A DNA stretch of 62,254 bases from Candidatus Ghiorseimicrobium undicola. Its GTDB lineage: Bacteria > Omnitrophota > Gorgyraeia > Ghiorseimicrobiales > Ghiorseimicrobiaceae. The notes under the pieces were generated by a model. The model was not told the DNA's origin, did no database searches, and saw nothing but the letters and a program-made list of their open reading frames with translations. Made by a program: the position numbers and the translations under genes. Of this stretch, positions 25,766 through 58,220 are shown piece by piece. The stretch's first letter is position 1; every line of letters starts with the position of its first letter. The stretch lies in the NCBI GenBank assembly GCA_002796125.1, contig PCWA01000015.1, positions 11,650 to 73,903 of the forward strand, given 5' to 3'.

Positions 25766-25794
25766 TTTACAAAGCATAATCTTGACTGTATAAT
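25766..25794 (+). promoter_or_regulatory. Putative sigma70 promoter of hisG
   Basis: TTTACA-17-TATAAT. Confidence 0.55.
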
Positions 25795-25825
25795 AAATTC
25801 TCCCTCTTACGTTAACAAAGACATG

Positions 25826-25937: not shown

Positions 25938-25939
25938 AA

Positions 25940-33911: not shown

Positions 33912-34631
33912 ATGGAAGAAATTATTCTTATGGTGGGTAAAAGAACTGAAATCGGCACTAAAGAAGCAAATCAGCTTAGGAAATCAGGATTTATCCCCGG
34001 AGTAGTTTACGGGGAGGCAAAATCAGAAGCAATAAAGATTTCCAGGTCTATATTGCTTAAATTCTTGCATGAACATAAAGGTGAAAACTTGATAATAAAT
34101 TTAAAAATTGATGAGGGGGATGCCAAGAAAGCAAAAAGCAGTACGGTGATGATTAAAGAAATACAGCTTGACCCGGTCAGCGATGAAATAATACACATCG
34201 ATTTTAATAGGATATCCATGACTAAAGCCATAACGGTTAAGGTTCCTGTTGAAGCCAAGGGCGAATCTATAGGCGTAAAAGCTGATGGCGGAGCGCTGGA
34301 ACATATTTTATGGGAACTTGAAATAGAATGCTTACCTAAAGATATACCTAATTCTATAACTATAGATGTAAGCCAGCTAAAGATCGGCGATGCAATACAC
34401 ATAAAGGATATCAAATTTCCTGAAGGCCTTAAAGTTAAGCATGAGCTAAACGCTATTGTTTTATCTATTGCTCCTCCTGCGAGAGAAGAGGTTCCCGCCG
34501 CCGGGGCAGAGGTACTTGCCGGAGAAGGCGAGGCTGAGCCGGAAGTAATTAAAGAGAAAAAGAAAGAGGAGGCGGCTAAAGAGCCTAAGGAAGCGGTAAA
34601 GGAACCTAAAGAAACAAAGGAAAGCAAATAA
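33912..34631 (+). CDS. rplY: 50S ribosomal protein bL25 (CTC long form)
   Basis: IPGVVYG, QLDPV, HIDF, GGALEH, CLPKDIP, acidic tail. Confidence 0.95.
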   Translation: MEEIILMVGKRTEIGTKEANQLRKSGFIPGVVYGEAKSEAIKISRSILLKFLHEHKGENLIINLKIDEGDAKKAKSSTVMIKEIQLDPVSDEIIHIDFNRISMTKAITVKVPVEAKGESIGVKADGGALEHILWELEIECLPKDIPNSITIDVSQLKIGDAIHIKDIKFPEGLKVKHELNAIVLSIAPPAREEVPAAGAEVLAGEGEAEPEVIKEKKKEEAAKEPKEAVKEPKETKESK

Positions 34632-34873
34632 TTCGCACTTATCCGCCTACGGCGGATGTGCTTATTTCCCGATGGCTAAACACTGCGTAGATTTCTTACG
34701 AAATCTACTTGTAGCCATCGGAATAATTCGCGCCTATCCGCCTACGACGGATGCGCTCATTTCCCTCGCCTATACGCTTGTAAATTTCTGGTGAAATTTA
34801 CTGCCCAGGCTTCGGGATTAATTCGGCCATACAACTTACGTCGGCTTCGCCTCCGTAAGTTGTGGCCTCATTA
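34629..34873 (+). repeat. Mosaic array of alternating hairpin modules (1-2-1-2-1)
   Basis: Type 1 at 34629-34666, 34724-34761, 34819-34873; type 2 at 34667-34723, 34762-34817. Confidence 0.9.
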
Positions 34874-34874
34874 T

Positions 34875-35456
34875 ATGAAGCTAATAGTTGGCTTGGGCAA
34901 CCCGGGTTATAAATATGAAAATAGCTGGCATAACTTGGGCAGGAAGGTAGTTAAGTGCTTAGCCAGAGATTTAAAATGTTCTTTTAAAAGAGTAGAAAAC
35001 TTAGAGAGTTTTATTGCAAAAACAGAATATAAAGGAGAAAAAGTTTTGTTGGCATTACCGGACAGATTTATGAATTTATCCGGCAGGGCCGTTAGAATTA
35101 TAAGTGAGAAAAAAAATATTCAGCTCTGCGATATGCTTATAGTTTTTGATGATATAGATATCAATTTTGGCGCCATAAAGATTAAGCATGGTGGTGCGAG
35201 CGCAGGCCACAGAGGCGTCGAATCCATTATAGAAAGGTTGGGTTCGTCCTGCTTTAGCCGCCTGCGGATAGGAATAAAGACTCAAAAATCCGGGGATAAA
35301 AAAGCCTTGTTGAGTGATTACGTATTATCTAATCTTGACTCTCAGGAGAGGGATAAATTCAAAGATATATCCGGGAATTCAATCGAGTGTATAAAAATCT
35401 GGATTACCGGCGGAGTTAAAAAAGCGATGAATGATTTTAATAAAAAAATTCACTAA
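34875..35456 (+). CDS. pth: Peptidyl-tRNA hydrolase
   Basis: MKLIVGLGNPG, HNLG, FMNLSG, GHRGVES, RLRIGI. Start moved to ATG 34875; the track extension reads through the repeat. Confidence 0.95.
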   Translation: MKLIVGLGNPGYKYENSWHNLGRKVVKCLARDLKCSFKRVENLESFIAKTEYKGEKVLLALPDRFMNLSGRAVRIISEKKNIQLCDMLIVFDDIDINFGAIKIKHGGASAGHRGVESIIERLGSSCFSRLRIGIKTQKSGDKKALLSDYVLSNLDSQERDKFKDISGNSIECIKIWITGGVKKAMNDFNKKIH

Positions 35457-35482
35457 TTTGGATTAGTATGAGAGGAGTAAGC

Positions 35483-35776
35483 ATGTTAAGAAAATATGAA
35501 GCTATGTTTATTTTAAAGCCGGATTTGGATGAACAAAAAGTCAACAGCTTATCCAAGCAGATAACCGAGACGATTGTTAAAGCGGAAGGGAAAGTTGGCG
35601 CCAGTGAGGTTTGGTCTGGAAAGCGTAAATTTTGCTTCCCCATTAAAAAATTCAGCGAAGGCATGTATTATCGTGTTGATTTTGTCATAGAATCCAGCAG
35701 GATTGATTCTTTGAAGCAAGGTTATAAGCTCAACGAAGATATACTGAGGTTAATGATAAATAGCTTAGAGAAATAG
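35483..35776 (+). CDS. rpsF: 30S ribosomal protein bS6
   Basis: YEAMFILKP, W.GKRKF.FPI, GMYY, ILRLM. Start at ATG 35483 after gaggag. Confidence 0.93.
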   Translation: MLRKYEAMFILKPDLDEQKVNSLSKQITETIVKAEGKVGASEVWSGKRKFCFPIKKFSEGMYYRVDFVIESSRIDSLKQGYKLNEDILRLMINSLEK

Positions 35777-35831
35777 TGCCGGAGTATTGAATTTTTCAAA
35801 ATTAGGTTTGAAAAGTCAGGAAGGAGAATTA

Positions 35832-36287
35832 ATGGCTAGTTTGAACAGGATATTTTTAATTGGGAATTTAACTAAAGACCCTGAATTGCGCTATACGCCT
35901 TCGGGTATCGCGGTTGCCAATTTACGCATTGCCGTAAACAGGCGTTTTCGCGATAAGAATGGCGAGCAAAAAGAAGAGACCTGTTTTATTACTGTTGTCG
36001 TCTGGGATAAGCAGGCCGAGGCCTGTAATCAATATTTAAGAAAAGGCAGTGCTGTCTTTACGGAAGGCAGGTTGCAGTCGCGTTCTTGGGATGCTCCGGA
36101 CGGTACAAAGAGAAATACAATAGAAGTAAGGGCTGATCGCGTGCAATTTCTGGCAACACAACGGCAGGCATCTGAGAAGCCGGCAGGCAGCGGAAACGTT
36201 TCAGCGGAAGAACCCCGGGTTGGTTATGAAAGCCGCAATGAGGAAGATTCAAGCGATGATACTTCCTGGGCGGGCAATGAGGAATAA
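35832..36287 (+). CDS. ssb: Single-stranded DNA-binding protein
   Basis: LIGNLTKDPELRYTPSG, EGRLQSRSW. Start at ATG 35832 after aggag. Confidence 0.96.
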   Translation: MASLNRIFLIGNLTKDPELRYTPSGIAVANLRIAVNRRFRDKNGEQKEETCFITVVVWDKQAEACNQYLRKGSAVFTEGRLQSRSWDAPDGTKRNTIEVRADRVQFLATQRQASEKPAGSGNVSAEEPRVGYESRNEEDSSDDTSWAGNEE

Positions 36288-36380
36288 TATTGATAATATT
36301 CCGGCAGAAAGATATTTTTAATTACCGCGCCATTATGGGCGTAGTGGATATACGGATGCCGGAGGGAGGTAAATGACGAA

Positions 36381-36623
36381 ATGATTAAAAGATCGAAACC
36401 CAGAGAACACCTAGGAATTGTGGTTAAAAAACACTGCAGGTTTTGCAGGGATGGCGGAGTGAATTTTGATTACAAGGAATCAAAGCGCCTGGAGAAGTTT
36501 TTAAACGAAAGAGGGAAAATTTTGTCCCCGCGTATAACCGGTAATTGTGCCAAACATCAGAGGAAGATAACAGTTTTGATAAAACGCGCGAGATTTTTGG
36601 CTTTACTGCCGTATGTTAAATAA
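36381..36623 (+). CDS. rpsR: 30S ribosomal protein bS18 (Zn-binding form)
   Basis: [30 protein letters not shown]. Confidence 0.96.
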
Positions 36624-36697
36624 TATATTAAAAGCTTTCCGGGTAGTAGAATAAAACGGATTGTTTTGAGATAGAAAAGTCAGGAGGTAAGCAAATC

Positions 36698-37141
36698 GTG
36701 AAGGTAATATTACAGCAGGATGTTAATAAACTAGGGAAAAAAGGGGCAATGGTTAAGGTTAAAGACGGATTTGCGCGTAATTTTTTACTGCCGAAAGGGA
36801 TTGCCCTTACCGCGACCCAGGAAAATTTAAAAAAAGTAGAAAGAAATTTAGCGAATCAGGCTCAGCGCATAACTGAAGAGAAGGGCAAAGCTCAGGAATT
36901 GGCAGATAAGCTTTCGGCGATTTCCTGCACAATATCCGTAGACGCGCATGAAGAAGACAAGATATATGGCAGCGTTACGGCTGCGCATATCCTATCTGCG
37001 CTTGAAGCAGAAGGAATAATATTGGATAAAAAACAAGTTCTTCTGAAAGATCCGATTAAATCCCTGGGTATATATGATGTGGAGTTAAGGCTCCATCCGG
37101 AAGTTAAGGTAAAATTGAAGGTTTGGGTAGTAAAGAAGTAA
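36698..37141 (+). CDS. rplI: 50S ribosomal protein bL9
   Basis: MKVIL, VKDGFARNFLLPKG, IYGSVT, LHPEV. Confidence 0.97.
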   Translation: MKVILQQDVNKLGKKGAMVKVKDGFARNFLLPKGIALTATQENLKKVERNLANQAQRITEEKGKAQELADKLSAISCTISVDAHEEDKIYGSVTAAHILSALEAEGIILDKKQVLLKDPIKSLGIYDVELRLHPEVKVKLKVWVVKK

Positions 37142-37142
37142 C

Positions 37143-37163
37143 AAGAAGCCAGCAACCAGAAGC
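37143..37163 (+). repeat. Short heptamer tract
   Basis: aagaagc cagcaac cagaagc; similar to the tract at 26822. Confidence 0.4.
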
Positions 37164-37190
37164 GGTTTCTGCCGCGCGAAGAGAGATAAA

Positions 37191-38531
37191 ATGTCCGATC
37201 CGATTCTAGATAAAATTCCGCCTCAGAATATCGAAGCGGAAATGGCTGTCCTTGGCTCTATGCTTCTTGAAGAAGACGCGATACATGACGCAATCGAAGT
37301 TTTAGATGAAAGCCATTTCTATAAAGATATTCACCGTAAAATTTTTTCCTGCGTTGTTAACTTATCTAAGCAGAATAAGCCCGTAGATTTGATTACGCTT
37401 ACCGCGGAATTAAAAAGTATAAATTCGCTGGATGATATCGGCGGAGCAAGCTATTTGACTTCTCTGGTAAATGCCGTGCCTACGGCCGCCAACGTAAAAA
37501 ATTACGCGCGCATAGTTAAAGAAAAAAGCGTATTACGGCTTTTAATAAACAAATCAACGCAGATAATTACTGATAGTTATAATGCCGATAGCAATGTTGA
37601 TGAATTACTGGATAAAGCAGAAAGCGTAATTTTTGAAATTTCCGATAAGCGCGTGGAGGGAAGTTTTCTGCCGATACATGAATTGGTGAACGATGCGGTA
37701 GAGCGCATTGATAAGCTTTACCAGAATAAATCGCAGGTTACGGGTTTGCCTTCAGGGTTTGTAGATTTCGATAGAAAAACAGCGGGATTTCAATCCTCCG
37801 ATTTGATTATTATCGCCGGCAGGCCTTCTATGGGCAAGAGCGCTTTTTCTCTTTGTATTGCTAACTATATCGGGGTGATGGAAAAAATACCCGTTGCTTT
37901 TTTTAGCCTCGAAATGTCCAAGGAGCAGCTTGTGCAGCGGCTATTGTGTCTGCATGCCAGGGTAGACGCGCATAGCGTCAGAACAGGTTTTCTTTCTACA
38001 TCAGATTGGCCAAAGATTACTGCCGCAGCAGGCAAACTTTCAGAATCGGCAATCTTTATTGACGATACCCCGGCGATATCGATATTAGAGTTGCGCGCCA
38101 AGGCCCGCCGGCTTAAATCGCAATATGGCATAAAATTGATAATCGTAGATTACCTTCAGCTTATGCGTAGTTCGATCAAATCACAGGAGTCAAGACAGCA
38201 GGAGATTTCTGAGATATCGCGTTCGCTGAAAGCCCTGGCCCGCGAATTGGATGTGGCCCTTATTGCCATAAGCCAGCTTTCGCGTGCAGTAGAGTCGCGC
38301 ATTGACCATAAGCCGCAGCTTTCGGACTTAAGAGAGTCGGGAGCCATTGAGCAGGATGCGGATGTGGTTGTTTTTCTGTTTCGCGAGGAATATTATAATC
38401 CTACGGAATCCAATAAGGGGCTGGCTGATGTTATAATCTCCAAGCAGAGAAACGGCCCGGTGGGGACGATTAAGCTCACTTTTCTAAAAGAATATACAAA
38501 ATTCGAGGATTCTGCGCGTGTATTTGAATGA
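37191..38531 (+). CDS. dnaB: Replicative DNA helicase
   Basis: PPQNIEAE, GRPSMGKS, FSLEMS, DYLQLM, SQLSR, LRESGAIEQDAD; no intein. Confidence 0.98.
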   Translation: MSDPILDKIPPQNIEAEMAVLGSMLLEEDAIHDAIEVLDESHFYKDIHRKIFSCVVNLSKQNKPVDLITLTAELKSINSLDDIGGASYLTSLVNAVPTAANVKNYARIVKEKSVLRLLINKSTQIITDSYNADSNVDELLDKAESVIFEISDKRVEGSFLPIHELVNDAVERIDKLYQNKSQVTGLPSGFVDFDRKTAGFQSSDLIIIAGRPSMGKSAFSLCIANYIGVMEKIPVAFFSLEMSKEQLVQRLLCLHARVDAHSVRTGFLSTSDWPKITAAAGKLSESAIFIDDTPAISILELRAKARRLKSQYGIKLIIVDYLQLMRSSIKSQESRQQEISEISRSLKALARELDVALIAISQLSRAVESRIDHKPQLSDLRESGAIEQDADVVVFLFREEYYNPTESNKGLADVIISKQRNGPVGTIKLTFLKEYTKFEDSARVFE

Positions 38532-38568
38532 GGCGGCGCGTTGCAGTATTTTGGCCTCGTTAAATTAT

Positions 38569-38597
38569 TTGACTAATTTAAAATATTTATTTATAAT
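38569..38597 (+). promoter_or_regulatory. Putative sigma70 promoter of bamA
   Basis: TTGACT-17-TATAAT, ending 9 nt before the ATG. Confidence 0.55.
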
Positions 38598-38606
38598 AGT
38601 TTAATT

Positions 38607-41000
38607 ATGAAAAAACTACAAAAAGCATTGCGGTTTTTAGGGATCTGTTTATTTTTTGGCGGGTTTATCTGCCTTATTTTTTCTTCTTATTCTATTGCCG
38701 AAGATAAGGGCGGGGAAGATTTGTCCTCTACGGAGGAGGCGGATTTAGACGCGGTAGAGAAGAAGATAACCGTATTGGATATAGAAGGCAATGAAGGCAT
38801 CAGCTCAAGCGTCATCTTATCCAAAATAAAAACCCGTGTAGGCCAGCCATATTCGGTAAATATAGCCAGAGATGATATAAAACGGCTTTATGAATTAGGC
38901 TACTTCAGCGATATAAAAATTATTCTTGAAGATTATCAGGATGGCATAAAAGTTGTATTTTCTTTGAAAAAAAAGCCGATTGTCGCTACTATTGCCTTTA
39001 AGGGCGTAAAATCAATGAATAGGGAGAAAATCCGTAAGGTGACCAATACCCAGGCCGGGCAATACCTGGATTATGTCAAATTAAATCAAGATGTCAAAGA
39101 AATACAAACCTTATACGAGAAGAGGGGATTTTCTAATGCCGCGGTGGAATATAAAGTTAATTTAGACAGCCAACAGGAAAAAGCGGATATTGATTTCATT
39201 ATCGAGGAAGGTAAAAGGGTAAAAATAAAAAGGATTACGCTTTTTGGGGTCAATAGCTTTAAAGATAAAAGAATACTTAAATTAATGAAGACTAAAAAGA
39301 AAGGCTGGTTTAGGGCCGGTTTACTTAAGGAAGACGACCTGGAAGAAGATCTAGAAAGAATATTATCATTTTACAGGGCTAATGGCTTTGCTGATGTTAA
39401 AGCCGAAAAAGAAGTTGAGCGCACAAGAAATTATATATATATTACAATTACCGTAGAAGAAGGAAAGCAGTATCATGTAGGCAGCCTTGCTCTTGAAGGC
39501 AATAATATTATTGCCTCAAGCGATATCCATGACAAGCTATTATTGGTGGGAGGGGAGATTTATACAGAAGATAAATTACGCGATGATGCGGCGGCTATCC
39601 AGACCCTTTATTTCGAAAAAGGTTATATTTTTGCCAGGGTTGATTTTAGCACTTCCCTAAATCCTGATGAGGGGTTAGTAGATATTACATACAGTGTTAT
39701 TGAAAATGAAGTGGCTTATGTCAGGCGTGTAAATGTGCGCGGCAATATAAAAACTAAAGATAAAGTCATCAGGAGGGAATTGCGTATTAATCCCGGAGAG
39801 CAGTTTGACGGCAAGAAGCTTAAAAGAAGCAGGGAAAGATTGTATAACCTTGGTTTTTTTGAAGAAGTCGGCTTTGATATGTTAGATACAGATAATCCCA
39901 ATACGAAAGATTTGGTAGTTGAAGTAAAAGAGGCAAAGACGGGGGAATTTAGTTTTGGCGGAGGCTATAGCTCTGTGGATCAATTCATAGGATTTTTTGA
40001 AATAGCCCAGAGAAATTTTGATTTTAAGAATTTCAAAACTTTTACTGGCGCGGGGCAGGATTTAAGGCTTAAAGCCCAGTTAGGCTCTATATCGAATAGC
40101 TTTGAGCTTAGTTTTACCGAGCCTTGGATTTTTGACTATCCTTTGTCATTTGGATTTGACGCTTACAGGACAGATCGTGAGAGGGAAAGCGATGTTGGTT
40201 ATGGTTTTGATGAGGATAGAAGCGGGGGGGATATAAGGCTGGCTAAAGAATTCGGTGAATTTATCAAAAGCGGCTTAACTTACCGCATAGAAAATGTAAA
40301 GATAAGCAATATCCCTTCCGATGCAACTAGTGATTTAAAAAATGAAGAAGGAGAAAATTTAATAAGTAGTTTGGGTTTTAGCCTGGTACGCGATGACCGC
40401 GATAATATTTTTAGCCCGACCAGAGGCACTGTTTTGGGCGGATCAATAGAAGTGGCAGGCGGGCCTTTTGGCGGAGACAAGGATTTTTATAGGGTTATCG
40501 GCCGGGGAGTCTATGATATGCCGGTTTTCAAGATCGGGAAAACAAAGCGTGCTGAAGAGGCAAAATATTCGGTCCTGGAGTTCCGCCTGCGCACCGGGAT
40601 AGTAGATGAATTTGATGATTCAGAGAGTGTTCCGATATATGAAAGATTTTATCTAGGCGGTTCAAACAGCGTAAGGGGTTATAATGAGCGTAAAATCGGC
40701 CCCCTGGATTCTGTAACGGAAGACCCATTGGGCGGAGAGGCCATGGTTTTGGCTAACATTGAATATGTCCATCCTATAGTTGATTTTATTAAAGGGGCCG
40801 TATTTTACGATGTCGGAAATGTATGGGCGGATTCGAAGGATCTGGGTAATGGTGGATTTAAAGCCGGTATAGGTTTGGGCGTACGTATTAAGACGCCGAT
40901 AGGCCCGATAAAACTGGATTATGGTTTTCCTCTTAATGAAGAACCGGGAGAAGATACGAAGACCGGTAAATTCCATTTTAGCGTAAGCCGCGGATTTTAA
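38607..41000 (+). CDS. bamA: Outer membrane protein assembly factor BamA
   Basis: POTRA repeats, KDKVIRREL, VRGY motif, GIGLGVRIKTPIGPI, C-terminal Phe. Confidence 0.96.
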   Translation: MKKLQKALRFLGICLFFGGFICLIFSSYSIAEDKGGEDLSSTEEADLDAVEKKITVLDIEGNEGISSSVILSKIKTRVGQPYSVNIARDDIKRLYELGYFSDIKIILEDYQDGIKVVFSLKKKPIVATIAFKGVKSMNREKIRKVTNTQAGQYLDYVKLNQDVKEIQTLYEKRGFSNAAVEYKVNLDSQQEKADIDFIIEEGKRVKIKRITLFGVNSFKDKRILKLMKTKKKGWFRAGLLKEDDLEEDLERILSFYRANGFADVKAEKEVERTRNYIYITITVEEGKQYHVGSLALEGNNIIASSDIHDKLLLVGGEIYTEDKLRDDAAAIQTLYFEKGYIFARVDFSTSLNPDEGLVDITYSVIENEVAYVRRVNVRGNIKTKDKVIRRELRINPGEQFDGKKLKRSRERLYNLGFFEEVGFDMLDTDNPNTKDLVVEVKEAKTGEFSFGGGYSSVDQFIGFFEIAQRNFDFKNFKTFTGAGQDLRLKAQLGSISNSFELSFTEPWIFDYPLSFGFDAYRTDRERESDVGYGFDEDRSGGDIRLAKEFGEFIKSGLTYRIENVKISNIPSDATSDLKNEEGENLISSLGFSLVRDDRDNIFSPTRGTVLGGSIEVAGGPFGGDKDFYRVIGRGVYDMPVFKIGKTKRAEEAKYSVLEFRLRTGIVDEFDDSESVPIYERFYLGGSNSVRGYNERKIGPLDSVTEDPLGGEAMVLANIEYVHPIVDFIKGAVFYDVGNVWADSKDLGNGGFKAGIGLGVRIKTPIGPIKLDYGFPLNEEPGEDTKTGKFHFSVSRGF

Positions 41001-41125
41001 GTAAGGAGTAGAAGATAACCAAGAAACATCCTGCGTTTTTAAGGCAGCCGGCGCTTAAGGGAATCGCGCCGCTGTGCACTTGTGGGCAATTGCGTAGGTG
41101 TTCACTAATTGTGAAGGAGCAAGAG

Positions 41126-41635
41126 ATGAGAAAGAGAATATGGATATTTGTTTTTTTATTTTTGTCATGTTTTTTGTACGATAAGTCTGTTTTCGCCGCA
41201 GATAAATTCGCATACGTAAATTTGGGCAAAATTTTTAATGAGTATATAGTGACCAAAGAATACGATAAGGAGCTGGAAAAGAAACAAAAAAGTTATGAGC
41301 AGGATCGCGATAAAAAACTTGAAGAAATAAAGAGTATGCAGGATAAGCTTAGCCTTTTAAACGATAAAGAAAAAACTAAAAAGCAAACCGAAATGCAGGA
41401 AAAAATATCCGCTTTCAAAGAATATGAAAACGGCATATTGCAGGATTTAAGGAAGGAAAGAGACGATAAAATCAAAGGCATATTGGAGGATATAGAAGAG
41501 GCTGTACGCCAATACGCCGTGAAAGAAGGATATACGCTGGTATTTAATGATAGGGTTTTGGTGTATCAGGATAAAAGTTACGATATAACAGAGGCGATCA
41601 TCGCAATTGTTAACAGCAATTTAAAGAAGAAATAA
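41126..41635 (+). CDS. skp: OmpH/Skp family chaperone
   Basis: Signal peptide, FAYVNL, coiled coil, GYTLVF, DITE. Start moved to ATG 41126. Confidence 0.9.
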
Positions 41636-41661
41636 AAAGAAGGGCTTTTAGCCCTAATAAT

Positions 41662-44023: not shown

Positions 44024-44191
44024 ATTAAGCCGCGGCTTAAAAAGTAAAATACCAATAAAGCATTTATTTAAAATCGCCCTTGATATGGTAAACCCGGCGT
44101 TCTTATGGACGCGGGGATGAGTGTCAAGGGCGTAGCTCAAACAGTAACTTATGGAAAAGCGCGCATGTCATAAGTTGCAGTTTTGTTGATT

Positions 44192-44971
44192 ATGAATATA
44201 GACCAGACGGCAATTGTTTCCAAAAAGGCTAGCTTAGGCGTCAATATCGAAGTCGGGCCATATAGCATTATTGAAGACAATGTGATTATCGGTAAAAATA
44301 CAAAAATCGGCGCGCATTGCCATATATGTAAAAATACCACTATTGGCGACAACTGCAGTATATTTACCGGTGCGGTAATAGGCAGCATACCGCAGGATTT
44401 AAAATTTTCAGGAGAAGAAAGCCTTTTATTTATCGGCAATGATAATATAATACGGGAGTATTCGACTATAAACTTGGGTACGGGCAAAGGCGGTAAAACA
44501 GTAATCGGCTCAAGAAACCTGATTATGGCTTATTCCCACGTAGCGCATGACTGCATGGTGGGCAATGATTGCGTTATTGCAAACGGGGGAACTCTTGCAG
44601 GGCATGTTCAAGTCGCAGATAAGGCGATTATAGGAGGGTTGGTGGCAATACATCAATTTAGCCGCGTGGGTACGCTTTCTATTATCGGCGGTTGTTCTAA
44701 AGTTGTTCAGGATATTCCGCCATATTCTACTTGCGACGGCCATCCTTCAAGGGTTTATGGCTTAAACCTTATAGGCTTAAGAAGGTCCGGCCTGGATAAC
44801 AAAATTATTGTTCAGTTAAAGCAAGCTTTTAAGATTATTTTTTTCTCACAGCATACTATTAATAGCGCGCTACAAGAGATTAAAAAAGAAATTCCAAATT
44901 CCCAATATCTTTCCCAGTTATTAGATTTTATGACTACGTCTAAGAGAGGCGTTTGTAAAGCGGTTCGTTAG
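44192..44971 (+). CDS. lpxA: UDP-N-acetylglucosamine acyltransferase
   Basis: PQDLKF, IREY, HVAHDC, LAGHV, HQF. Start at ATG 44192. Confidence 0.96.
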   Translation: MNIDQTAIVSKKASLGVNIEVGPYSIIEDNVIIGKNTKIGAHCHICKNTTIGDNCSIFTGAVIGSIPQDLKFSGEESLLFIGNDNIIREYSTINLGTGKGGKTVIGSRNLIMAYSHVAHDCMVGNDCVIANGGTLAGHVQVADKAIIGGLVAIHQFSRVGTLSIIGGCSKVVQDIPPYSTCDGHPSRVYGLNLIGLRRSGLDNKIIVQLKQAFKIIFFSQHTINSALQEIKKEIPNSQYLSQLLDFMTTSKRGVCKAVR

Positions 44972-45059
44972 TTATTGGCCGCGGCCAAGCTTTTAGGCGT
45001 CCGATTGCGCGTTGCCTGTCGGCCTTATCAGAGTTTCAAAAATAATTACTAAAAATATT

Positions 45060-45878
45060 ATGGAAAAAAACACATTCAAAAAAATTGGCCTTATAGCCGG
45101 TTCCGGCCGCTTCCCTTTATTGTTTTCGCAAGAGGCGAAAAAAAACGGCGTAAGTGTCGTGGCTATAGCGGTAAAAGGCGATACCTGTAATAAGCTCAAT
45201 CGCTGCGTTGATAAAATTATCTGGCTTAAAATTTCTGAATTCAAGAGAATATTCGATATTTTTAAAAGCGAAAATATAGATAAGGCGGCCATGGCAGGTC
45301 AAATTAGCCCGAGGCGCCTTTTTGACAAAAGGAATAATTTTGGCCCGGAATTAAAAAAGTTACTAGAACGTATTAGGGATAAAAAAGCTGATACTATTTT
45401 TTCCGCTGTTGCCGAAGAATTGAATAGCCATGGCATAGAGGTAATAAGTTCGCTTCTTTTTCTTTCAGAATATATACCGCAAAAGTCAGTATTGACAAAG
45501 CGTAAGCCTGTCGATTCACAGTGGCAGGACATATATTTCGGGCTGGATATTGCTAAAAAAATAGCGGGTTTGGATATAGGCCAGACGGTTGTTGTTAAGC
45601 AGAAAGCGGTTCTTGCTGTTGAAGCGCTGGAGGGGACGGATGTAACTATAGCCAGAGGGGGCTTGATTGGGCGCGGCAATTCCACTGTTATTAAAGTGAG
45701 CAAGCCGAATCAGGATATGCGTTTTGATGTTCCCGTTGTGGGCCTTAAGACTATGCGTAGGCTATCGGCTTCAGGGATAAATTGCCTGGCGCTCGAAGCA
45801 GGCAGAACCATTATTTTGGATAAAAAGGAAGTAATAAGTTTTGCCGACAAAAAAGGTATTATAATTGCCGCTGTATAA
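45060..45878 (+). CDS. lpxI: UDP-2,3-diacylglucosamine hydrolase LpxI
   Basis: GLIAGSGRFP, DIGQTVVV, EALEGTD, QDMRFDVPVVG. Start at ATG 45060. Confidence 0.93.
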   Translation: MEKNTFKKIGLIAGSGRFPLLFSQEAKKNGVSVVAIAVKGDTCNKLNRCVDKIIWLKISEFKRIFDIFKSENIDKAAMAGQISPRRLFDKRNNFGPELKKLLERIRDKKADTIFSAVAEELNSHGIEVISSLLFLSEYIPQKSVLTKRKPVDSQWQDIYFGLDIAKKIAGLDIGQTVVVKQKAVLAVEALEGTDVTIARGGLIGRGNSTVIKVSKPNQDMRFDVPVVGLKTMRRLSASGINCLALEAGRTIILDKKEVISFADKKGIIIAAV

Positions 45879-45911
45879 TTCGCCCATATCTCGCCGCAGG
45901 CGGATGGATCC
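45876..45911 (+). repeat. Solitary type-1 hairpin module beginning in the lpxI stop codon
   Basis: taattcgcccatatctcgccgcaggcggatggatcc; closely similar to the reverse complement of 51475-51513. Confidence 0.8.
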
Positions 45912-45925
45912 AGTAATTTAAAAAC

Positions 45926-46645
45926 ATGAAGTACATATACGGACCTGTTAAATCCAGGCGCCTTGGGCTTTCCCTTGGGATATCTTTGGTGCCTTATAAG
46001 ATGTGCAATCTGGATTGCATATATTGCCAGCTGGGGCCGACGGCAAAACGCACGCTGAAAAGAAAACAATATATTAAGATAAAAGATATTATAAGCGAGC
46101 TAAGCGAATTTATCAATTCAGCGGATTTTAAGAATATGAATATCGATTATATAAGCCTTTCAGGTACAGGTGAACCTTTATTGAATTCAAAAATAGATGT
46201 TTTAATAGATGAAATAAAAAAACTTAGCACTATACCGATTGCTTTGATCACTAATGCGTCTTTGTTTAAAGAGAAGCGCATACGAGATAGTATTTTGGGT
46301 GTCGATTTGATTATGCCTTCTTTGGATGCCATAGATAATGAGACATTTAAAGCTATTGACAGGCCGGCTAAAGGGTTATGCATAGAGGATATCATAAAAG
46401 GCCTGGTTAATTTAAGGAATGAATTTGGCGGCAAGATCTTTCTGGAGATAATGATCGTCAAGGGAGTCAATGATAATCTTAGTTATTTCCAGGAGTTTAA
46501 ACATGTTATCGCAAGAATCGACCCCGATAAGGTGCATCTTAATGTCCCCAAAAGGCATACATCGGAAGCGGGGGTTTCTGTCCCCGATAGAGAAGTATTA
46601 AAAAAAATATGTAAAATTTTAGGCGATAAATGCGAAATAATATAA
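45926..46645 (+). CDS. Radical SAM protein (COG0731-like)
   Basis: YGPVKSRRLGLSLGI, CNLDCIYC, SGTGEP. Confidence 0.88.
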   Translation: MKYIYGPVKSRRLGLSLGISLVPYKMCNLDCIYCQLGPTAKRTLKRKQYIKIKDIISELSEFINSADFKNMNIDYISLSGTGEPLLNSKIDVLIDEIKKLSTIPIALITNASLFKEKRIRDSILGVDLIMPSLDAIDNETFKAIDRPAKGLCIEDIIKGLVNLRNEFGGKIFLEIMIVKGVNDNLSYFQEFKHVIARIDPDKVHLNVPKRHTSEAGVSVPDREVLKKICKILGDKCEII

Positions 46646-46654
46646 TTTCGACTA

Positions 46655-47092
46655 ATGCGGATAATTACAAAAAATAGCGAAGAGACAAAAGAATTCGGCA
46701 GAAAGCTGGCAAAGAAATTGAAACCTTGTTCTGTCATCGCGCTTTTCGGCGGATTAGGGTCGGGAAAAACCGTTTTGACAAAGGGAATAGCTGATGGCTT
46801 GGGAATAAAAAAAGCGGCTGTTATAAGCCCTACATTCGTTTTATTGAGGGAGTATGCTTCCGGTAAAGTTAAATTATATCATTTTGATTTATACCGGATT
46901 AAAAAAACAGATATCTTAAGTCTTGGGATAGACGAGTATTTATACGGCGACGGCATAAGCGTGGTTGAGTGGGCTGAGAGAATCGAAGACTATCTTCCTC
47001 GGGACTGCATGAAAATAGAAATTTCCGTTTTGGGCGAAAATAAGCGCTTGATTAATGTTAAAATGCGGCAAATAAAATCTCAGGCCCGATGA
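46655..47092 (+). CDS. tsaE: tRNA threonylcarbamoyladenosine biosynthesis ATPase
   Basis: GGLGSGKT, SPTF, HFDLYR, VEWAE. Confidence 0.95.
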   Translation: MRIITKNSEETKEFGRKLAKKLKPCSVIALFGGLGSGKTVLTKGIADGLGIKKAAVISPTFVLLREYASGKVKLYHFDLYRIKKTDILSLGIDEYLYGDGISVVEWAERIEDYLPRDCMKIEISVLGENKRLINVKMRQIKSQAR

Positions 47093-47790
47093 AGATATTA
47101 GGCATTGATACTTCTACTAAATTTTTAAGTATTACTTTGACTGAAAATGAAAAAGTTATTTTTGATTACCGTTATAACGCGGGCAGGAAGCATTCTGTCC
47201 TGCTTTTAGGCGCTTTAGAGAGGATGCTTAATAGAAGCAATATTAATATTGATAATATCGGCGCCTTTTGCGTAGGTTTGGGGCCGGGGTCCTTTACCGG
47301 CATGCGTATTTCGATGTCTATGGCTAAGGCATTTTCTTTCGGGCTGGGTGCCGGAATTTTAGGTATTCCTACCCTGGATGTAATCGCGCATAACATAAAG
47401 GAAAATGGGAATATCTCTGTAATATCGGATGCGCGCAGGGGTAATGTATATAGCGCGTTTTATAAGAGAGAAAACGATAAAGTCAGGAGATTGACGCCTT
47501 ATTTGCTTCTGGATTTTGATAATTGGCTGGGCATGCTGAATAAAAAGACATTTATCACCGGTGAAGCTATTGCCGGCAATAAAGATAAATTACGCGCTTG
47601 CAATAATGCGCTTTGCCTTCCTGAGGAATTTTGGTACCCCGGCGGTAAAAATTTAAATAAGCTCGCTTATGATAGGATCCTGAGCCATGGCCATGATGAT
47701 ATTGCTAAGTTGAACCCCATGTATCTTTACCCTAAGGAATGCCAAATTAAGCCGCAGATTCCACAGATTAAAAAAAGCAAAAATGAATAA
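47089..47790 (+). CDS. tsaB: tRNA threonylcarbamoyladenosine biosynthesis protein TsaB
   Basis: LGIDTS, KHS, GPGSFTGMRI, DARRG, PMYL. Confidence 0.95.
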   Translation: MKILGIDTSTKFLSITLTENEKVIFDYRYNAGRKHSVLLLGALERMLNRSNINIDNIGAFCVGLGPGSFTGMRISMSMAKAFSFGLGAGILGIPTLDVIAHNIKENGNISVISDARRGNVYSAFYKRENDKVRRLTPYLLLDFDNWLGMLNKKTFITGEAIAGNKDKLRACNNALCLPEEFWYPGGKNLNKLAYDRILSHGHDDIAKLNPMYLYPKECQIKPQIPQIKKSKNE

Positions 47791-48904
47791 AATCGGTTAT
47801 CGTCCGACATGGGCAGAAGTTAATTTAGCAAACATAGCTTATAATATAAATTCTATACGTAAGATTGTGCCGGAAGAAACCGAAATATTGGCTACCGTTA
47901 AAGCGGATGCTTACGGGCACGGCTTAATTCCGGTATCAAAAAAACTGATTTCTTTGGGTATAAAGTATTTGGGCGTCGCCAGTATCGATGAGGCGATAAC
48001 CTTGCGCCATGCCGGCATAAAATCATCCATCCTTGTGTTGGGAGGCATATTCTTAAAAGATTGCCCTGCCATAATAGATTACGGTTTGGCACAAACGGTA
48101 TTTAGCGAAGAAATCGCAGCTGGCTTAAATGCCCAAGCCAGCAAAAAGAGAAAACCGGTAAAAATACACATAAAAATAGATACGGGAATGGGCAGGATTG
48201 GCATCTGGCATAAAGACGCCCTGACTTTTGTAAAGGCGGTAAATAAACTTGCTTATCTTAAGATAGAGGGTATTTTTACTCATTTATCTTCTGCCGATAG
48301 TGATGCGGATTTTACGCGCAGGCAGATAAGTTTATTCAAGGAATTATTAAAAAAAATAGATTGTTGCGGCATATCCATACCCCTAAAACATGCTGCTAAT
48401 AGCCTTGGTATGGTTAATTTTAAGTCCAGCCATTTTAATTTAATCAGGCCGGGAATTGTTATTTATGGCCTTTATCCTCAGCGCGCGCTAAATATTAAAA
48501 TCAAACCGGTATTAAGCCTTAAGACAAAAGTTGTTTATTTAAAAAAAGTGCCCGGCGGCAGAAGCATAAGTTATAACAAGACCTATGTAACCAAGAGAAA
48601 AACTGTTATCGCTGTTTTGCCTGTCGGCTATGGCGACGGCTATCCCAGGGCGCTTTCTAATAAAGCAGAAGTCATTATTAAAGGCAGGCGGGTTAAAGTC
48701 GTCGGCAGGGTTTGCATGGACCAGACAATGGTAGATGCAGGCTCGGTTAAGAATCTGTCCGTAGGGGATGAAGTTACCTTAATCGGCCAAGATAAGAATA
48801 GCTTTGTTAGCGCAGAAGAGCTGGCCGCTTTATCGGATACCATATGTTATGAAATAGTCTGTGGTTTGGGTAATAGGATACCGAGAGTTTACCTGAATAA
48901 ATGA
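47783..48904 (+). CDS. alr: Alanine racemase
   Basis: VKADAYGHG, KIDTGMGR, GIFTH, GYGDG, GRVCMDQ, TICYE. Confidence 0.97.
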   Translation: MNKIGYRPTWAEVNLANIAYNINSIRKIVPEETEILATVKADAYGHGLIPVSKKLISLGIKYLGVASIDEAITLRHAGIKSSILVLGGIFLKDCPAIIDYGLAQTVFSEEIAAGLNAQASKKRKPVKIHIKIDTGMGRIGIWHKDALTFVKAVNKLAYLKIEGIFTHLSSADSDADFTRRQISLFKELLKKIDCCGISIPLKHAANSLGMVNFKSSHFNLIRPGIVIYGLYPQRALNIKIKPVLSLKTKVVYLKKVPGGRSISYNKTYVTKRKTVIAVLPVGYGDGYPRALSNKAEVIIKGRRVKVVGRVCMDQTMVDAGSVKNLSVGDEVTLIGQDKNSFVSAEELAALSDTICYEIVCGLGNRIPRVYLNK

Positions 48905-48960
48905 AGCTCCGCAGGTTAAAGCCCGCGGTTTTGGAGCGTCGGGATAAATCGATAAAGCCT

Positions 48961-50052
48961 TTAGGAAAGCCTGCGCACGGCAAATAGGCTTGCCGAAATG
49001 AATACTCCGTGGCTTAAGACAGCGGATATAATGGGCGGGATGAGTCCGGTTTTCCCAAAGGCAATACTTGTTTGGTTGAAGACATAGTATATAAAACTTA
49101 TTCCTATGCAGACGCCCAGGGATGCTATGGCTTGGCCTCTTTTTCTTGAGCCGAGGGCGAAAGGTATTCCCACCAGGATTATTATAAAACTTGTAAACGG
49201 ATAGCTGTAGCGGTTGTAGAGGTCTACTTTAAGGTTTCTGATTACGGCGACTGCCCCGCTTTTTGAAAGCCTGTTTACATAATCTTTTAGCTGTGCTATA
49301 TTCATGAACGCTGTCTGTTGCTGCTGGCGCAGAAAATCGGCCGGCCGGTCATCAAGCCGCATGAATTTATTCTCGAAATAAAACGGCTCGCCGATTAACT
49401 GGCCGTCTTGATTAAAATAGGAAATGACGCATTTGCGGAACAGCCAGCTATCTTTCCTGAAATAAGCATATCTTGCCACTGTTTTAGAAACGACATTTTG
49501 ATTTTTGTCGTGTTCGAGCATCGTTACATTTTCCATCATTTGTTTTTTCGGGTAATATATATCTATAACAAAATGGCGGTTATTTTGCCCGTATATCGCG
49601 AGATTATACATTTTACTGGGCTGGCCGTTATTATTCTTTTCAAATATCTCATTTTTCATCCGGTAACTAATCTGTTGCGCTTTTGGCAGGAAGCGCTCAT
49701 TTACCATAAAAATAAGTATACTGATTATAAATCCGAATATAAGGACGGGCTGCGATATCCGCCAGATGCTTAGGCCGCTTGCGCGCATGGCGATGATTTC
49801 GTTATTCTTGGATAATGTCCCTATAGAATAGAGAAGGCTCAGCAGGCAGGCCATTGGAGAGACCTGGATGTATATAAGCGGTATAAATGAGAGGTAATAG
49901 TTTATTAATAAGGATAACGCTACCTGATCTTTTAAAATATCATCTAAATGGGAAAATAAATCTACGATTATATATAAAAACAGAAATACAAGTATGCAAC
50001 ATATATAGGCTGAAACCATGGATTTAGTTAAGTATCTGTCTAAAATGCGCAT
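48961..50052 (-). CDS. lptG: LPS export ABC transporter permease LptG
   Basis: MRILDRYL start (moved from 50106), NNEIIAMRASG, 6-TM layout with periplasmic domain. Confidence 0.88.
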   Translation of the reverse strand: MRILDRYLTKSMVSAYICCILVFLFLYIIVDLFSHLDDILKDQVALSLLINYYLSFIPLIYIQVSPMACLLSLLYSIGTLSKNNEIIAMRASGLSIWRISQPVLIFGFIISILIFMVNERFLPKAQQISYRMKNEIFEKNNNGQPSKMYNLAIYGQNNRHFVIDIYYPKKQMMENVTMLEHDKNQNVVSKTVARYAYFRKDSWLFRKCVISYFNQDGQLIGEPFYFENKFMRLDDRPADFLRQQQQTAFMNIAQLKDYVNRLSKSGAVAVIRNLKVDLYNRYSYPFTSFIIILVGIPFALGSRKRGQAIASLGVCIGISFIYYVFNQTSIAFGKTGLIPPIISAVLSHGVFISASLFAVRRLS

Positions 50053-51146
50053 ACAAGCATAGTAAGGATTGTGCCTAGCAGGCCGAATATGATATTTGGT
50101 ATCCACATGGCAAGTTCCGGCATGGGGTATCCATGCAGGCCAAGGTATTTCGCCAGGGCGCCTGCCCCCAGGATTAATAGGTAGTATATTCCAAAAATAA
50201 CAAAACCCAAGCCTAAATTTACGGATTTTAACCTTTGCTTGGCAATCATGCTTAAAGGACAGCCGATTAAAGCCAGGATCAGGCAGGCGAACGCGAGCGA
50301 GATCTTTGTTTGTATTTCTATGGAAAGCGGGCTATAGTCCATATCTGATTTAGCAAGGCGCCTGATTTCCTCATTAAGTTCTTTAAGTGTCATGTCTTTT
50401 GGTTTTTTAACCGTTTTACCATTGGTGGGTTTTGCGACATTTAAGTTTATAAAGTATGTTTTGAAGTTCAATTTATAAAACATATTAGGATCATTCGGGT
50501 TGGGTTCGTCGCTGGAACCGTCGATAAGCTTTAATTTGATTATTCCCTGTTCCGGCAAAGATATAAATTCCCCTTTTTTGGCAATAATTGTGCGCGCGGG
50601 CTTGCCGGGCCCTTGAGGTTCGTATATGCGTATATTTTCCAATTTATTGCCTTCGATTTTGTAAATAAACAATATATATTTTTGGAATGAATCAATAAAT
50701 GTCCCCGCCTCAAGCGTAGCCGTAGGGTTTTTGAAGCCTATATCAAGCATGGCCCTTCGCTTTTCAAAATTTGCTTTAGGCATAATAGTCGTGTTGAATA
50801 TTACCATAAAAAGGCTGAACATCAGCCCGAGGGTTATTACCGGCATGACGATATGCATAAGATTTATCCCCGCCGCTTTTATCGCCGTTATCTCGTTATC
50901 AGATGAAATTCTACCCATAGACCAGAGAACGCTTGTAAATATAGCCAAGGGGAGTATGAAGCTTAAGGGGTAGAATAAGGAGTAGAAAAACAGTTTACCT
51001 ACCGAGAAGACTTCAACGCCTTTATTTATTATCAGCGCCGTGTATTGAGTCAGGAAGACCAGAGAAAAAATAAACAACAAGACCGCAAGAGATAATATAA
51101 AAGGAGTTATAAATTCTTTTAATACATATTTACGCAGTATTTTCAT
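50040..51146 (-). CDS. lptF: LPS export ABC transporter permease LptF
   Basis: MKILRKY, DNEITAIKAAG; first of the paired permeases. Confidence 0.88.
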   Translation of the reverse strand: MKILRKYVLKEFITPFILSLAVLLFIFSLVFLTQYTALIINKGVEVFSVGKLFFYSLFYPLSFILPLAIFTSVLWSMGRISSDNEITAIKAAGINLMHIVMPVITLGLMFSLFMVIFNTTIMPKANFEKRRAMLDIGFKNPTATLEAGTFIDSFQKYILFIYKIEGNKLENIRIYEPQGPGKPARTIIAKKGEFISLPEQGIIKLKLIDGSSDEPNPNDPNMFYKLNFKTYFINLNVAKPTNGKTVKKPKDMTLKELNEEIRRLAKSDMDYSPLSIEIQTKISLAFACLILALIGCPLSMIAKQRLKSVNLGLGFVIFGIYYLLILGAGALAKYLGLHGYPMPELAMWIPNIIFGLLGTILTMLVCAF

Positions 51147-51147
51147 T

Positions 51148-51513
51148 TAATGAGGCCATAACTTATGGAGGCGGAGCCGGCATAAGTTATTTGGCCGAAT
51201 TATCCCGAAGCCTATCAGGGTAAAATTCGAAGAAATTTACCCTGATGTTTAGGCGAGGGATGCCGCTATCATCTAATGAGCGCATAACTTACGGAGTTCG
51301 AAGAACGACGTAAGTTATTTGCGCGAATTAATCTCCTCGCTTAAGCAAGGGGTAAATTCTCGAAGAGAATTTACCCCTTAAGCTTCGGAGTAGGTTAGAA
51401 CTTATTAAGCTTGAACCTACCCGCAGCCTATCGGGTAAATGTCGTAGAGATTTACCCGATGTTTAGGCAAGGGAAGGAGCGCATCCGCCTTGCGGCGAGA
51501 TAAGTGCGAATTA
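51148..51513 (-). repeat. Largest mosaic hairpin array: three type-1 and three type-2 modules with short spacers
   Basis: Type 1 at 51148-51202, 51274-51330, 51475-51513; type 2 at 51203-51260, 51332-51390 (inverted), 51420-51474. Confidence 0.9.
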
Positions 51514-57800: not shown

Positions 57801-58220
57801 ATGCCTAACTATGAATTCCTAGAGCATACCGCAGATATCGGTATCAGGCTAAACTCCAGGAGCCTGCAAGAATTATTCAAAAATGCCGCTTTGGCGATGT
57901 TTGATATTATTGCTGAAAGGAAGTCCGAAAGCGGTAACCGGGGGCTGGAAAAATTAACCCTTAAACAAGAGGCAGAAAATAAGGAAGAGCTTCTTGTTAA
58001 TTGGCTCAACGAACTCCTTTCCTTATCCAGCGTAAAAGAAATAATATTTACCGATTTTAAGATAGATAAATTAAGCGAAACCGCTTTAGAAGCGGCTGCT
58101 TTTAGCCGGCCGGTTGCAGATTTTACCGTCAATACGGAAATTAAAGCGGCAACCCGCCATGAGTTAAAAATCGAAAAGACGGGTTCCTTATGGCAGGCCG
58201 AAGTTATATTTGATGTTTAA
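57801..58220 (+). CDS. Archease
   Basis: YEFLEHTADIG, LLVNWLNELL, EIKAAT.H, C-terminal FDV. Confidence 0.95.
   Translation: MPNYEFLEHTADIGIRLNSRSLQELFKNAALAMFDIIAERKSESGNRGLEKLTLKQEAENKEELLVNWLNELLSLSSVKEIIFTDFKIDKLSETALEAAAFSRPVADFTVNTEIKAATRHELKIEKTGSLWQAEVIFDV

Follow-up and report, generated by a model that had tools for sequence, protein, structure and literature searches.

In phage T7, the early genes are separated by intercistronic RNase III hairpins that carry an internal loop and lie just upstream of the next ribosome binding site; once cleaved, they protect the upstream RNA with a hairpin and release the downstream cistron. In the ompA leader, a 5'-terminal hairpin stabilises the mRNA. 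The Correia repeat enclosed elements of Neisseria (CREE, or NEMIS, neisserial miniature insertion sequences) measure 100-155 bp, occur as single elements bounded by terminal inverted repeats (TIRs) and are generally described as inserting at TA. These small repeats lie beside genes and are transcribed into mRNA, where RNase III binds them and then cleaves or is blocked (PMC2649163; PMC2229807). The pneumococcal BOX element (boxA-boxB(n)-boxC) is built from three kinds of sub-unit in variable internal number (PMC3049150). Repetitive extragenic palindromic sequences (REPs) and bacterial interspersed mosaic elements (BIMEs), known from Proteobacteria together with REP-associated tyrosine transposases (RAYTs), form mosaic arrays of short extragenic palindromes (Nunvar 2010, PMC2817692; Di Nocera 2013, PMC3733652), and a repeat terminus that doubles as a stop codon has been described before, in GTAG REPs (PMC3733652). 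Here we analyse arrays of three kinds of hairpin unit, T1, T2 and T3, at gene boundaries in a 62,254-nt stretch of contig PCWA01000015.1 of Candidatus Ghiorseimicrobium undicola (Omnitrophota). This whole stretch, referred to below as the window, has a GC content of 41%, and housekeeping genes are encoded on both of its strands.

A first-pass annotation of the window had noted that such elements begin in stop codons and end at start codons, and had explained this either by insertion at gene borders or by portable modules acting at the RNA level. We interpret the T units as a family of modular, transcribed and recombining hairpin cassettes that may mark cistron boundaries in RNA throughout the Omnitrophota, a tentative reading to which we assign a probability of roughly 0.45. 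The conserved unit is more likely to be an undescribed RNA-level gene-boundary signal than an ordinary junk repeat.

Architecture and placement of the hairpin units

Every unit consists of a single hairpin with a conserved foot. In the direct class, formed by T1 and T3, UAAU is paired with AUUA, and above this lie a 2x2 UC/UC internal loop and one G-C pair; at the DNA level, the foot reads TAATTCG...CTCATTA. T1 is topped by a short CCGCC/GGCGG stem, and T3 by a 4-bp variable stem, a 2-nt bulge, a 10-bp stem (AYAACUUAYG/CRUAAGUURU) and a variable loop that ranges from ~5 to >80 nt. Across loci, the foot (T/A)AATTCG...CTCATT(A/T)A bears several tops, including short T1-like ones and nested extra hairpins, with the T3 stem (AYAACTTAYG/CRTAAGTTRT in DNA) being dominant. 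T2 hairpins vary but have an AUCCC...GGGAU foot, and their position is nearly always directly 5' of T3; GTAG or GTAA is present only within some T2 stems. The linker between T2 and T3 is AU-rich (GGG-AUUAAUU), the boundary falling between GGG and AUUAAUUCG. Units are joined head to tail, with a fixed order and a sense orientation, and the first of them often overlaps the stop codon of the upstream gene with its 5' foot. Some T3 loops contain large nested GC-rich palindromes of up to ~80 nt (L026, from Ca. Velamenicoccus archaeovorus; L045; L110), and the loop thus seems to tolerate or attract secondary insertions.

Folding energies of the T3 units range from -19 to -24.5 kcal/mol (z -4.8 to -6.5); T1 folds are weaker, and the copy in array C is no better than shuffled sequence (z -0.35). 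The whole arrays are much more stable than shuffled sequence, with energies of -104.5 kcal/mol for A (z -8.8) and -163 kcal/mol for D (z -12.8).

The window holds four arrays of abutting units, with 4 T3, 4 T1 and ~7 T2 units in 62 kb (Table 1). All four are co-oriented with their genes, as the first-pass annotation had claimed, and open reading frame (ORF) ends together with the sequence confirmed each of the six stop and start junctions that it listed. The genes concerned were assigned by a Pfam scan of the window proteins, which recognised L25/TL5 (rplY), peptidyl-tRNA hydrolase (pth), LpxI, a radical SAM protein, a ComF-like phosphoribosyltransferase, LptF, LptG and HisG. On the stop side, the TAA of rplY (ORF 33912-34631, stop 34629-34631) forms the first three bases of TAATTCGCAC..., and the stops of lpxI (ORF 45012-45878, stop 45876-45878) and of the minus-strand comF-like gene (ORF 51511-52215, stop 51513-51511) each open a T1, so that 3/3 window arrays lying 3' of a co-oriented gene open in the stop codon of that gene. 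Since the C-termini of LpxI and ComF align with orthologues through the last residue, the units sit on the ancestral stop and do not truncate these genes; the position of the lpxI stop is identical in four genomes. On the start side, CATTA at 34869-34873 is followed by one T and the pth ATG at 34875, CATTA at 51152-51148 by one A and the lptF ATG at 51146-51144, and CATTA at 25933-25937 by AA and the hisG ATG at 25940. Hairpins of -19 to -24.5 kcal/mol therefore end 1 nt (pth, lptF) or 2 nt (hisG) before the initiation codon. The further claim that none of the arrays supplies a Shine-Dalgarno sequence was also borne out: pth, lptF, hisG and the radical SAM gene lack a GGAG-type Shine-Dalgarno, the position of which is taken by the 3' arm of the hairpin, whereas rplY, rpsR and rplI in the same window do carry one.

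Conservation and covariation of T3

T3 was searched for in a reference-genome collection with a 22-nt degenerate pattern for its 5' arm. It matched at least 112 stretches, contributed by ~70 assemblies; almost all of these carry the label Omnitrophota, and the complete Ca. Velamenicoccus archaeovorus genome is among them. The T3-bearing sequences span 39-54% GC. A census with a hidden Markov model (HMM) comprised 121 pattern-matching copies (from ~70 other assemblies) and 68 further hits. The 3' arm lay outside the search pattern, and only the CTCATTA foot was used to choose sequences for alignment; the arm is nonetheless complementary in almost every copy. In 53 aligned copies, the 18-pair structure is 99.6% paired, and four of its pairs covary (C-G/G-C, C-G/G-C/A-U/U-A, and two C-G/U-A) with 87 double changes. 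This covariation score was reached by 0/500 shuffles, and slid partners pair in 27-44% of cells. T3 is also extragenic, with midpoints in long open frames for 20/121 copies, vs 84% of all bases.

At gathering thresholds, Rfam 15 detected three tRNAs in the whole window and no hairpin-unit family, and a permissive scan of arrays A and D returned chance-level matches only. The T3 pattern was unmatched in the viral contigs of IMG/VR, and the searchable literature on Omnitrophota/Omnitrophica, including two large genome papers, contained no description of these elements. Sequence conservation on the scale of a phylum implies a conserved factor that would recognise the unit, and such conservation would still call for explanation if the units were only selfish DNA. 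T3 may in addition serve as a phylum marker, given that among the matches listed the 22-nt pattern matched almost only Omnitrophota-labelled genomes.

Registration with start and stop codons across genomes

A bias in position and orientation is present well beyond the window. A co-oriented start (ORF of at least 50 codons) lies no more than 25 nt 3' of the ATTA end in 71/121 T3 copies, vs 8/121 for the mirror position, in which a divergent start is at most 25 nt away from the opposite end (binomial p = 1e-13); the further HMM hits show the same start pattern (28/68). The distances are bimodal. In 32 copies, the start follows at 1-6 nt, which leaves no room for a Shine-Dalgarno, as in CTCATTAAATG; in 39 copies, it follows at 10-19 nt, and in most of the flanks listed an AAGGAGG-type Shine-Dalgarno comes directly after CTCATTA. 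Start registration amounts to 51/72 (71%) downstream of a co-oriented gene and 11/31 (35%) in divergent regions. A hairpin ends no more than 5 nt 5' of T3 in 112/121 copies, usually with the ATCCC...GGGAT foot of T2, and T2-T3 is a fixed dyad. The genes downstream are often highly expressed ones, among them groES/groEL, rpsH, rpmB, rpmE, rplI, infB and acpP, with names outside the window judged from N-termini only. A few T3 copies precede tRNA genes (L050, L069), and about ten abut the terminators of convergent genes. The start-codon half of the original observation thus generalises strongly.

The stop-codon half generalises only in part. Registration holds for the 3/3 array-initial units of the window, but TAATTCG units in general are at control level: their TAA is the stop of an ORF of at least 80 codons in 13/225 occurrences across all loci, compared with 1-9% for control heptamers. 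TAATTCG is rarely a stop codon across loci because T3 normally follows T2. In metagenomes of the Joint Genome Institute (JGI), the T1 pattern was found in 12 stretches, of which 7 are genuine copies; the other 5 are chance matches in unrelated high-GC coding DNA. The TAA is a stop codon in 1/7 genuine copies, the comF orthologue, and the remaining copies lie inside arrays or directly 5' of a Shine-Dalgarno and ATG.

In many other genomes, the post-stop position is taken by a unit of inverted type that does not occur in the window, T3' (TAAGTGAGG...), with the form TAAGYGARG-stem...stem-CGAACTTA. T3' approximates the reverse complement of T3 with one additional base pair and with a GA/GA internal loop replacing UC/UC; it is not a flipped T3, since the two are distinct forms, each with its own fixed orientation. 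In 18 of ~24 copies, an ORF of at least 50 codons terminates in frame at the TAA of T3', and the typical module elsewhere is therefore stop-T3'-T2-T3-(Shine-Dalgarno)-start. Stop registration is consequently a property of array-initial units here and of the sister unit T3' elsewhere.

Turnover of arrays at orthologous junctions

Presence/absence polymorphism is seen between related genomes. In a close strain (L127, 99% identity in the flanking genes), the comF-lptF junction consists of T1-T2-T3 in 156 nt. Since the breakpoint of the length change falls in the GCCTAAACATC segment common to two T2 copies, recombination between units is indicated. The junction is filled in both comparable genomes, with T1 as first unit here and T3' in L057, and assembly contigs carrying comF end inside the comF array. 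In four further assemblies that cover the pth region, the array length is unchanged. A second species offers a syntenic locus (L060) in which only 38 nt, free of any unit, separate rplY from pth, while rpsR-rplI holds T3'-T2-hairpin-T3 and prs-rplY holds T3, two junctions that are unit-free in the window. Tandem duplications of a truncated T3 with its upstream hairpin (L012 4500-4800, period ~92 nt; L062 900-1070; L078 6513-6649) suggest local duplication as a further route of array growth.

Among close relatives, the T units offered no clean pair of empty and filled sites, the orthologous empty junctions being too diverged to compare; the empty lpxI junction of L100 reads TAATTTT where the window reads TAATTCG. 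The TAAT...ATTA ends are indistinguishable from a TA/TAA duplication because they are the closing pairs of the hairpin. One candidate pair (L039 and L104, ~88% identity) was rejected, as its 80-nt insertion is an unrelated repeat. This structured repeat (AAGAAAATCGGCTTCGCCGATAAC...) occupies L039 4901-4984 and is absent at the orthologous site of L104 (~1500); AAGAAA flanks it on either side, and L104 has another copy at 5337-5417. The repeat is a different, miniature inverted-repeat transposable element (MITE)-like element of Omnitrophota and may lie in a coding region.

The HUH (Y1) gene of the window

The first-pass annotation had connected the mosaic elements with an HUH transposase encoded in the window. 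The ORF in question (5384-6301, 305 aa) lies between purD and purE and is a single-copy gene found at the same site in four other assemblies. Its product scores 27.9 bits against Pfam Y1_Tnp (cut-off 23), its best NCBIfam match is the REP-associated tyrosine transposase NF047646 (61.3 bits, cut-off 80), and it carries HFH, a YIHLNPV tyrosine motif and an extra C-terminal helix-turn-helix. On either side of the gene stands a copy of a 36-38-nt palindrome, AAATTACACAAAACAAGCA/TGCTTGTTTTGTGTAATT (5336-6310), the right copy overlapping the end of the ORF. A 47%-identical homologue within the ATP synthase operon of L117 has the same ACAAAACA-type flanks, and in 840 kb of loci such palindromes, which are unlike T1-T3, occur only beside Y1 genes of this kind. 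No Y1 homologue is encoded in any of the 112 T3 loci listed. The protein family has 1578 members at E <= 1e-10, some labelled Elusimicrobia, WOR-3 and Deltaproteobacteria.

The proposed connection is not supported by these comparisons: the gene has palindromes of its own and its family crosses phyla, whereas the T3 matches listed are almost all in Omnitrophota-labelled genomes. A RAYT gene is flanked by two copies of its own repeat family (PMC2817692), while the Y1 gene here is flanked by ACAAAACA palindromes unrelated to the T units. It resembles instead the TIR-flanked arrangement of TIRYT (PMC3733652). By its appearance, the gene forms with its hairpin flanks a self-contained element, comparable to the "TIRtron" (PMC3733652) and apparently a small mobile or domesticated unit; it seems not to be the engine of T1-T3. 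L117 also has a small GIY-YIG ORF (6429-6722), situated between the genes for the alpha and gamma subunits of ATP synthase; in L118, which is 99.9% identical, no gene was called at 4901-6385, where L117 has the alpha-subunit gene (4902-6347) just 5' of that ORF.

Functional interpretation and alternative explanations

At hisG, a near-consensus match to a sigma-70-type promoter lies upstream of the module, and the leader units are therefore probably transcribed and would form the 5' end of the mRNA; the predicted transcription start, ~7 nt past the promoter, coincides with the first base of the T2-like unit. Promoter-like sites resembling this case were read by eye in L100 and L024, and across loci 9 sites with at least 10/12 matches were available for the promoter-to-first-hairpin distance, too few for a test. 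Of the interpretation first offered, the portable intercistronic module acting in RNA has gained from the sense lock, the nucleotide-level placement and the upstream promoter; the HUH link is not supported. From sense orientation, unit order, adjacency to the Shine-Dalgarno or AUG, and essential genes without a Shine-Dalgarno at the hairpin foot, we infer an RNA-level role that could involve cleavage, stabilisation and the mode of translation initiation. The cassette would act in mRNA as cistron punctuation. A cut in the AU-rich T2-T3 linker or at the foot of T3 would place a hairpin at the 3' end of the upstream RNA, and the same cut would leave the downstream cistron with T3 as a 5'-terminal protective hairpin or with a near-leaderless 5' end; the resulting 5' edge would set how the downstream gene is translated. 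Copies would spread and turn over via recombination between units and possibly some transposition process.

A bolder version, which we regard as doubtful, is a phylum-wide punctuation code, in which a factor (an endoribonuclease or the ribosome) would read the foot and stem of T3 and either cut there or dock the ribosome. An AUG 1-3 nt from the hairpin foot would then initiate without a Shine-Dalgarno, as at pth, lptF and hisG, while units anchored on stop codons (T1 here, T3' elsewhere) would mark the end of the upstream cistron. The string of hairpins, through its paired feet, would bring stop and start codons 240-365 nt apart close together in space, and this closeness could preserve termination-reinitiation coupling.

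Several observations weigh against an RNA-level role. In T3 stems, which are 97% Watson-Crick, G-U pairs (15) are no commoner than A-C (13), so there is no sign of structural selection confined to the sense strand. About 40% of T3 copies are not at a start codon, some lying inside arrays or beside convergent terminators, and no trans-acting factor was identified for the T units. Turnover and length polymorphism are typical of mobile repeats: comF-lptF has 7 units (365 nt) in the window vs 3 in L127, module content differs between species at the orthologous junctions rplY-pth, rpsR-rplI and prs-rplY, and decayed copies exist, as before lpxA. The main rival reading is that of selfish REP/BIME- or MITE-like palindromes with no function of their own, which would insert at TA/TAA, for instance in the stop codons of densely packed operons, or recombine and then be filtered by position, the only survivors being sense copies with both flanking genes left undamaged. 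At a junction such as TAA-ATG or TAA-AGGAGG-N-ATG, insertion into the stop codon would yield stop and start registration together. Such repeats would account for the changing content of orthologous junctions, the strain difference in array length with its breakpoint within a repeated T2 segment, the decayed lpxA copy and the breaking of contigs at the comF array, and near-perfect palindromes with G-U equal to A-C are expected from DNA-level copying. The unchanged lpxI stop in four genomes, with TAATTTT in the empty L100 vs TAATTCG here, the excess of start registration after co-oriented genes (71% vs 35% in divergent regions) and the precedent of GTAG REP termini that often supply stop codons (PMC3733652) also favour this account. 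However, conservation across a phylum at 39-54% GC is atypical of species-specific REP/MITE families, T3 and T3' are distinct forms of fixed orientation and not one element inserted either way round, the order T2-T3 is fixed, and start registration is tight even in leaders without an upstream stop (hisG; 11/31 in divergent regions). Neither a target duplication could be demonstrated nor a partner transposase found. We hold purely selfish repeats to be somewhat unlikely, although RNA punctuation and selfish DNA are not mutually exclusive.

Were the units a REP/BIME system driven by the RAYT-like HUH transposase at 5384-6301, the Y1_Tnp match above cut-off, the nearest NCBIfam family, the HFH and YIHLNPV motifs and the single-copy gene that occupies the same site in four other assemblies would be in keeping with it; the same NCBIfam score falls short of the family cut-off of 80, the gene and its 47%-identical homologue have flanking palindromes of their own kind that occur only next to such genes, no homologue lies near the 112 T3 loci listed, family members are also labelled Elusimicrobia, WOR-3 and Deltaproteobacteria, and the T units lack a terminal GTAG tag, which makes this origin very unlikely. 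Equally little can be made, and in our view even less, of a DNA-level cassette in which the first units would be a terminator and T2-T3 a promoter, together forming an insulator. The units do lie exactly between stop and start and also occur in front of tRNA genes (L050, L069). Nevertheless, no unit is followed by a U-tract, the scanned hisG region 25600-26000 has no terminator-like site, and the near-consensus sigma-70 promoter upstream of the hisG module places the units within the transcript. A T3 loop of ~5 to >80 nt is incompatible with fixed -35/-10 spacing, and compensatory stem changes point to a folded single strand. Three further candidates were rejected on sequence alone: integron attC sites (no GTTRRRY core, housekeeping genes as neighbours), a sigma-54 or sigma-70 promoter inside T3 (variable loop length and "GG" positions) and a tRNA-like structure.

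If the T units do act at the RNA level, they would constitute a conserved cis-element at many, plausibly hundreds, of gene boundaries per genome and would show how polycistronic transcripts are divided, and genes translated without a Shine-Dalgarno, in an uncultivated phylum. For annotation, T3 marks true starts within a few bases, and T3' or T1 marks stops. If they are selfish only, the lesson would be that insertion into the stop codons of compact operons can mimic registration with translation signals.

Feature coordinates and further observations in the window

The coordinates of all units are collected in Table 1. The decayed T3 before lpxA (44133-44182) retains the TAACTTATG/CATAAGTTG top and has lost its base.

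Table 1. Hairpin arrays, units and associated signals of the window (z, folding z-score; R1, bit score).
Feature	Position	Strand	Description
Array A	34629-34873	+	rplY to pth; T1-T2-T1-T2-T3
Array A unit T1a	34629-34667	+	short-top hairpin, TAATTCG...CTTATTT base; first 3 bases = rplY stop; -16.3 kcal/mol, z -5.1
Array A unit T2a	34668-34723	+	CCC...GG(A) base, GTAGATTTC/GAAATCTAC core
Array A unit T1b	34724-34762	+	inside array, TAA not a stop codon; 89% identity to T1a
Array A unit T2b	34763-34818	+	CCCTCGCCTA...AGGCTTCGGGAT
Array A unit T3	34819-34873	+	conserved 55-nt hairpin; CATTA end 1 nt before pth ATG; R1 74.3 bits; -24.5 kcal/mol, z -6.3
Sigma-70-like promoter	25766-25794	+	TTTACA-17-TATAAT; 11/12 matches, consensus match only
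Array B	25802-25937	+	hisG leader; T2-like, T3
Array B T2-like hairpin	25802-25883	+	hisG leader
Array B unit T3	25884-25937	+	CATTA end 2 nt before hisG ATG (25940); R1 74.8 bits; -19.1 kcal/mol, z -4.8
Array C	45876-45919	+	lpxI to radical SAM; one degenerate T1
Array C single T1	45876-45919	+	degenerate 3' half; TAA = lpxI stop; radical SAM ATG at 45926; z -0.35
Array D	51513-51148	-	comF to lptF; T1-T2-small hairpin-T2-T3-T2-T3
Array D unit T1	51474-51513	-	TAA 51513-51511 = comF stop
Array D unit T2a	51420-51473	-	
Array D small extra hairpin	51391-51419	-	TAGGTT...AACCTA
Array D unit T2b	51331-51390	-	
Array D unit T3a	51274-51330	-	inside array, no start codon after; R1 72.6 bits; -21.1 kcal/mol
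Array D spacer + unit T2c	51203-51273	-	GCCTAAACATC, common to T2a = breakpoint of 209-nt length difference vs strain contig L127
Array D unit T3b	51148-51202	-	CATTA end 1 nt before lptF ATG (51146-51144); R1 72.9 bits; -21.8 kcal/mol
Decayed T2-like hairpin (44075-44132) + decayed T3 (44133-44182)	44075-44182	+	directly 5' of lpxA start; R1 13.3 bits

Elsewhere in the window, an intein (Pfam Intein_splicing, residues 111-613) splits the RtcB RNA ligase gene (58281-61271, 996 aa), which is preceded by an ORF (57801-58220) that is archease-like by its sequence alone, and an RNA 3'-phosphate cyclase is encoded at 13388-14428. A structured, GC-rich (up to 70%) intergenic stretch of 190 nt (19196-19385) precedes a cutA-like gene and contains the hairpin CGTAATTTTCC/GGAAAATTACG; it has no Rfam match and is not a T1-T3 unit. 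The AT-rich spacer upstream of nrdR (10034-10117) carries repeated TTACTAATTAC-like motifs that form a long imperfect palindrome. Two "intergenic" stretches, 24029-24210 and 17549-17759, look from their reading frames like small genes under the 80-aa ORF cut-off, the candidates being a ~60-aa 4Fe-4S ferredoxin and a DUF167/YggU-like protein, respectively.

Comparison with known systems

REP/BIME systems with their RAYTs (PMC2817692; PMC3733652) resemble the T units in being short extragenic palindromes in mosaic arrays, co-transcribed with neighbouring genes, with symmetry kept by compensatory changes, termini that can supply stop codons and a Y1/HUH gene in the genome; like REPs, the T units are short, imperfect, extragenic and present in many copies. 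In contrast, T1 and T3 start with TAATTCG and end with CTCATTA, with no terminal GTAG or CGTC tag (PMC3733652), and the window units keep one sense orientation, whereas REPINs (REP doublets forming hairpins) and BIMEs alternate or invert. The T3'-T2-T3 module of other genomes resembles an inverted doublet, yet T3' is a distinct form. T units also lie mainly 5' of start codons and not 3' of genes, and they are conserved across a phylum and not a species or genus.

The Correia elements (PMC2649163; PMC2229807) are likewise small hairpin repeats beside genes that enter mRNA and meet RNase III, and their presence or absence in a strain changes the expression of neighbouring genes. Unlike the T units, they can create promoters and are genus-specific, whereas T units are individual hairpins combined as modules in a set order, for which neither inverted termini nor a target duplication could be demonstrated. 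BOX (PMC3049150) shares three sub-unit kinds in variable internal number and an intergenic, transcribed and strongly structured RNA, but it is species-level, shows no stop or start registration and is unrelated in sequence. With RNase III and RNase E sites, the fit of T3 is one of anatomy only (a ~18-bp stem, a conserved 2x2 internal loop near the foot and an AU-rich linker), and unlike the T7 and ompA hairpins T3 is a high-copy chromosomal family in which the stem sequence, and not shape alone, is conserved. The T units are thus best described as similar in kind to BIME, BOX and Correia elements, but set apart by their locked orientation, their positional grammar and the breadth of their conservation.

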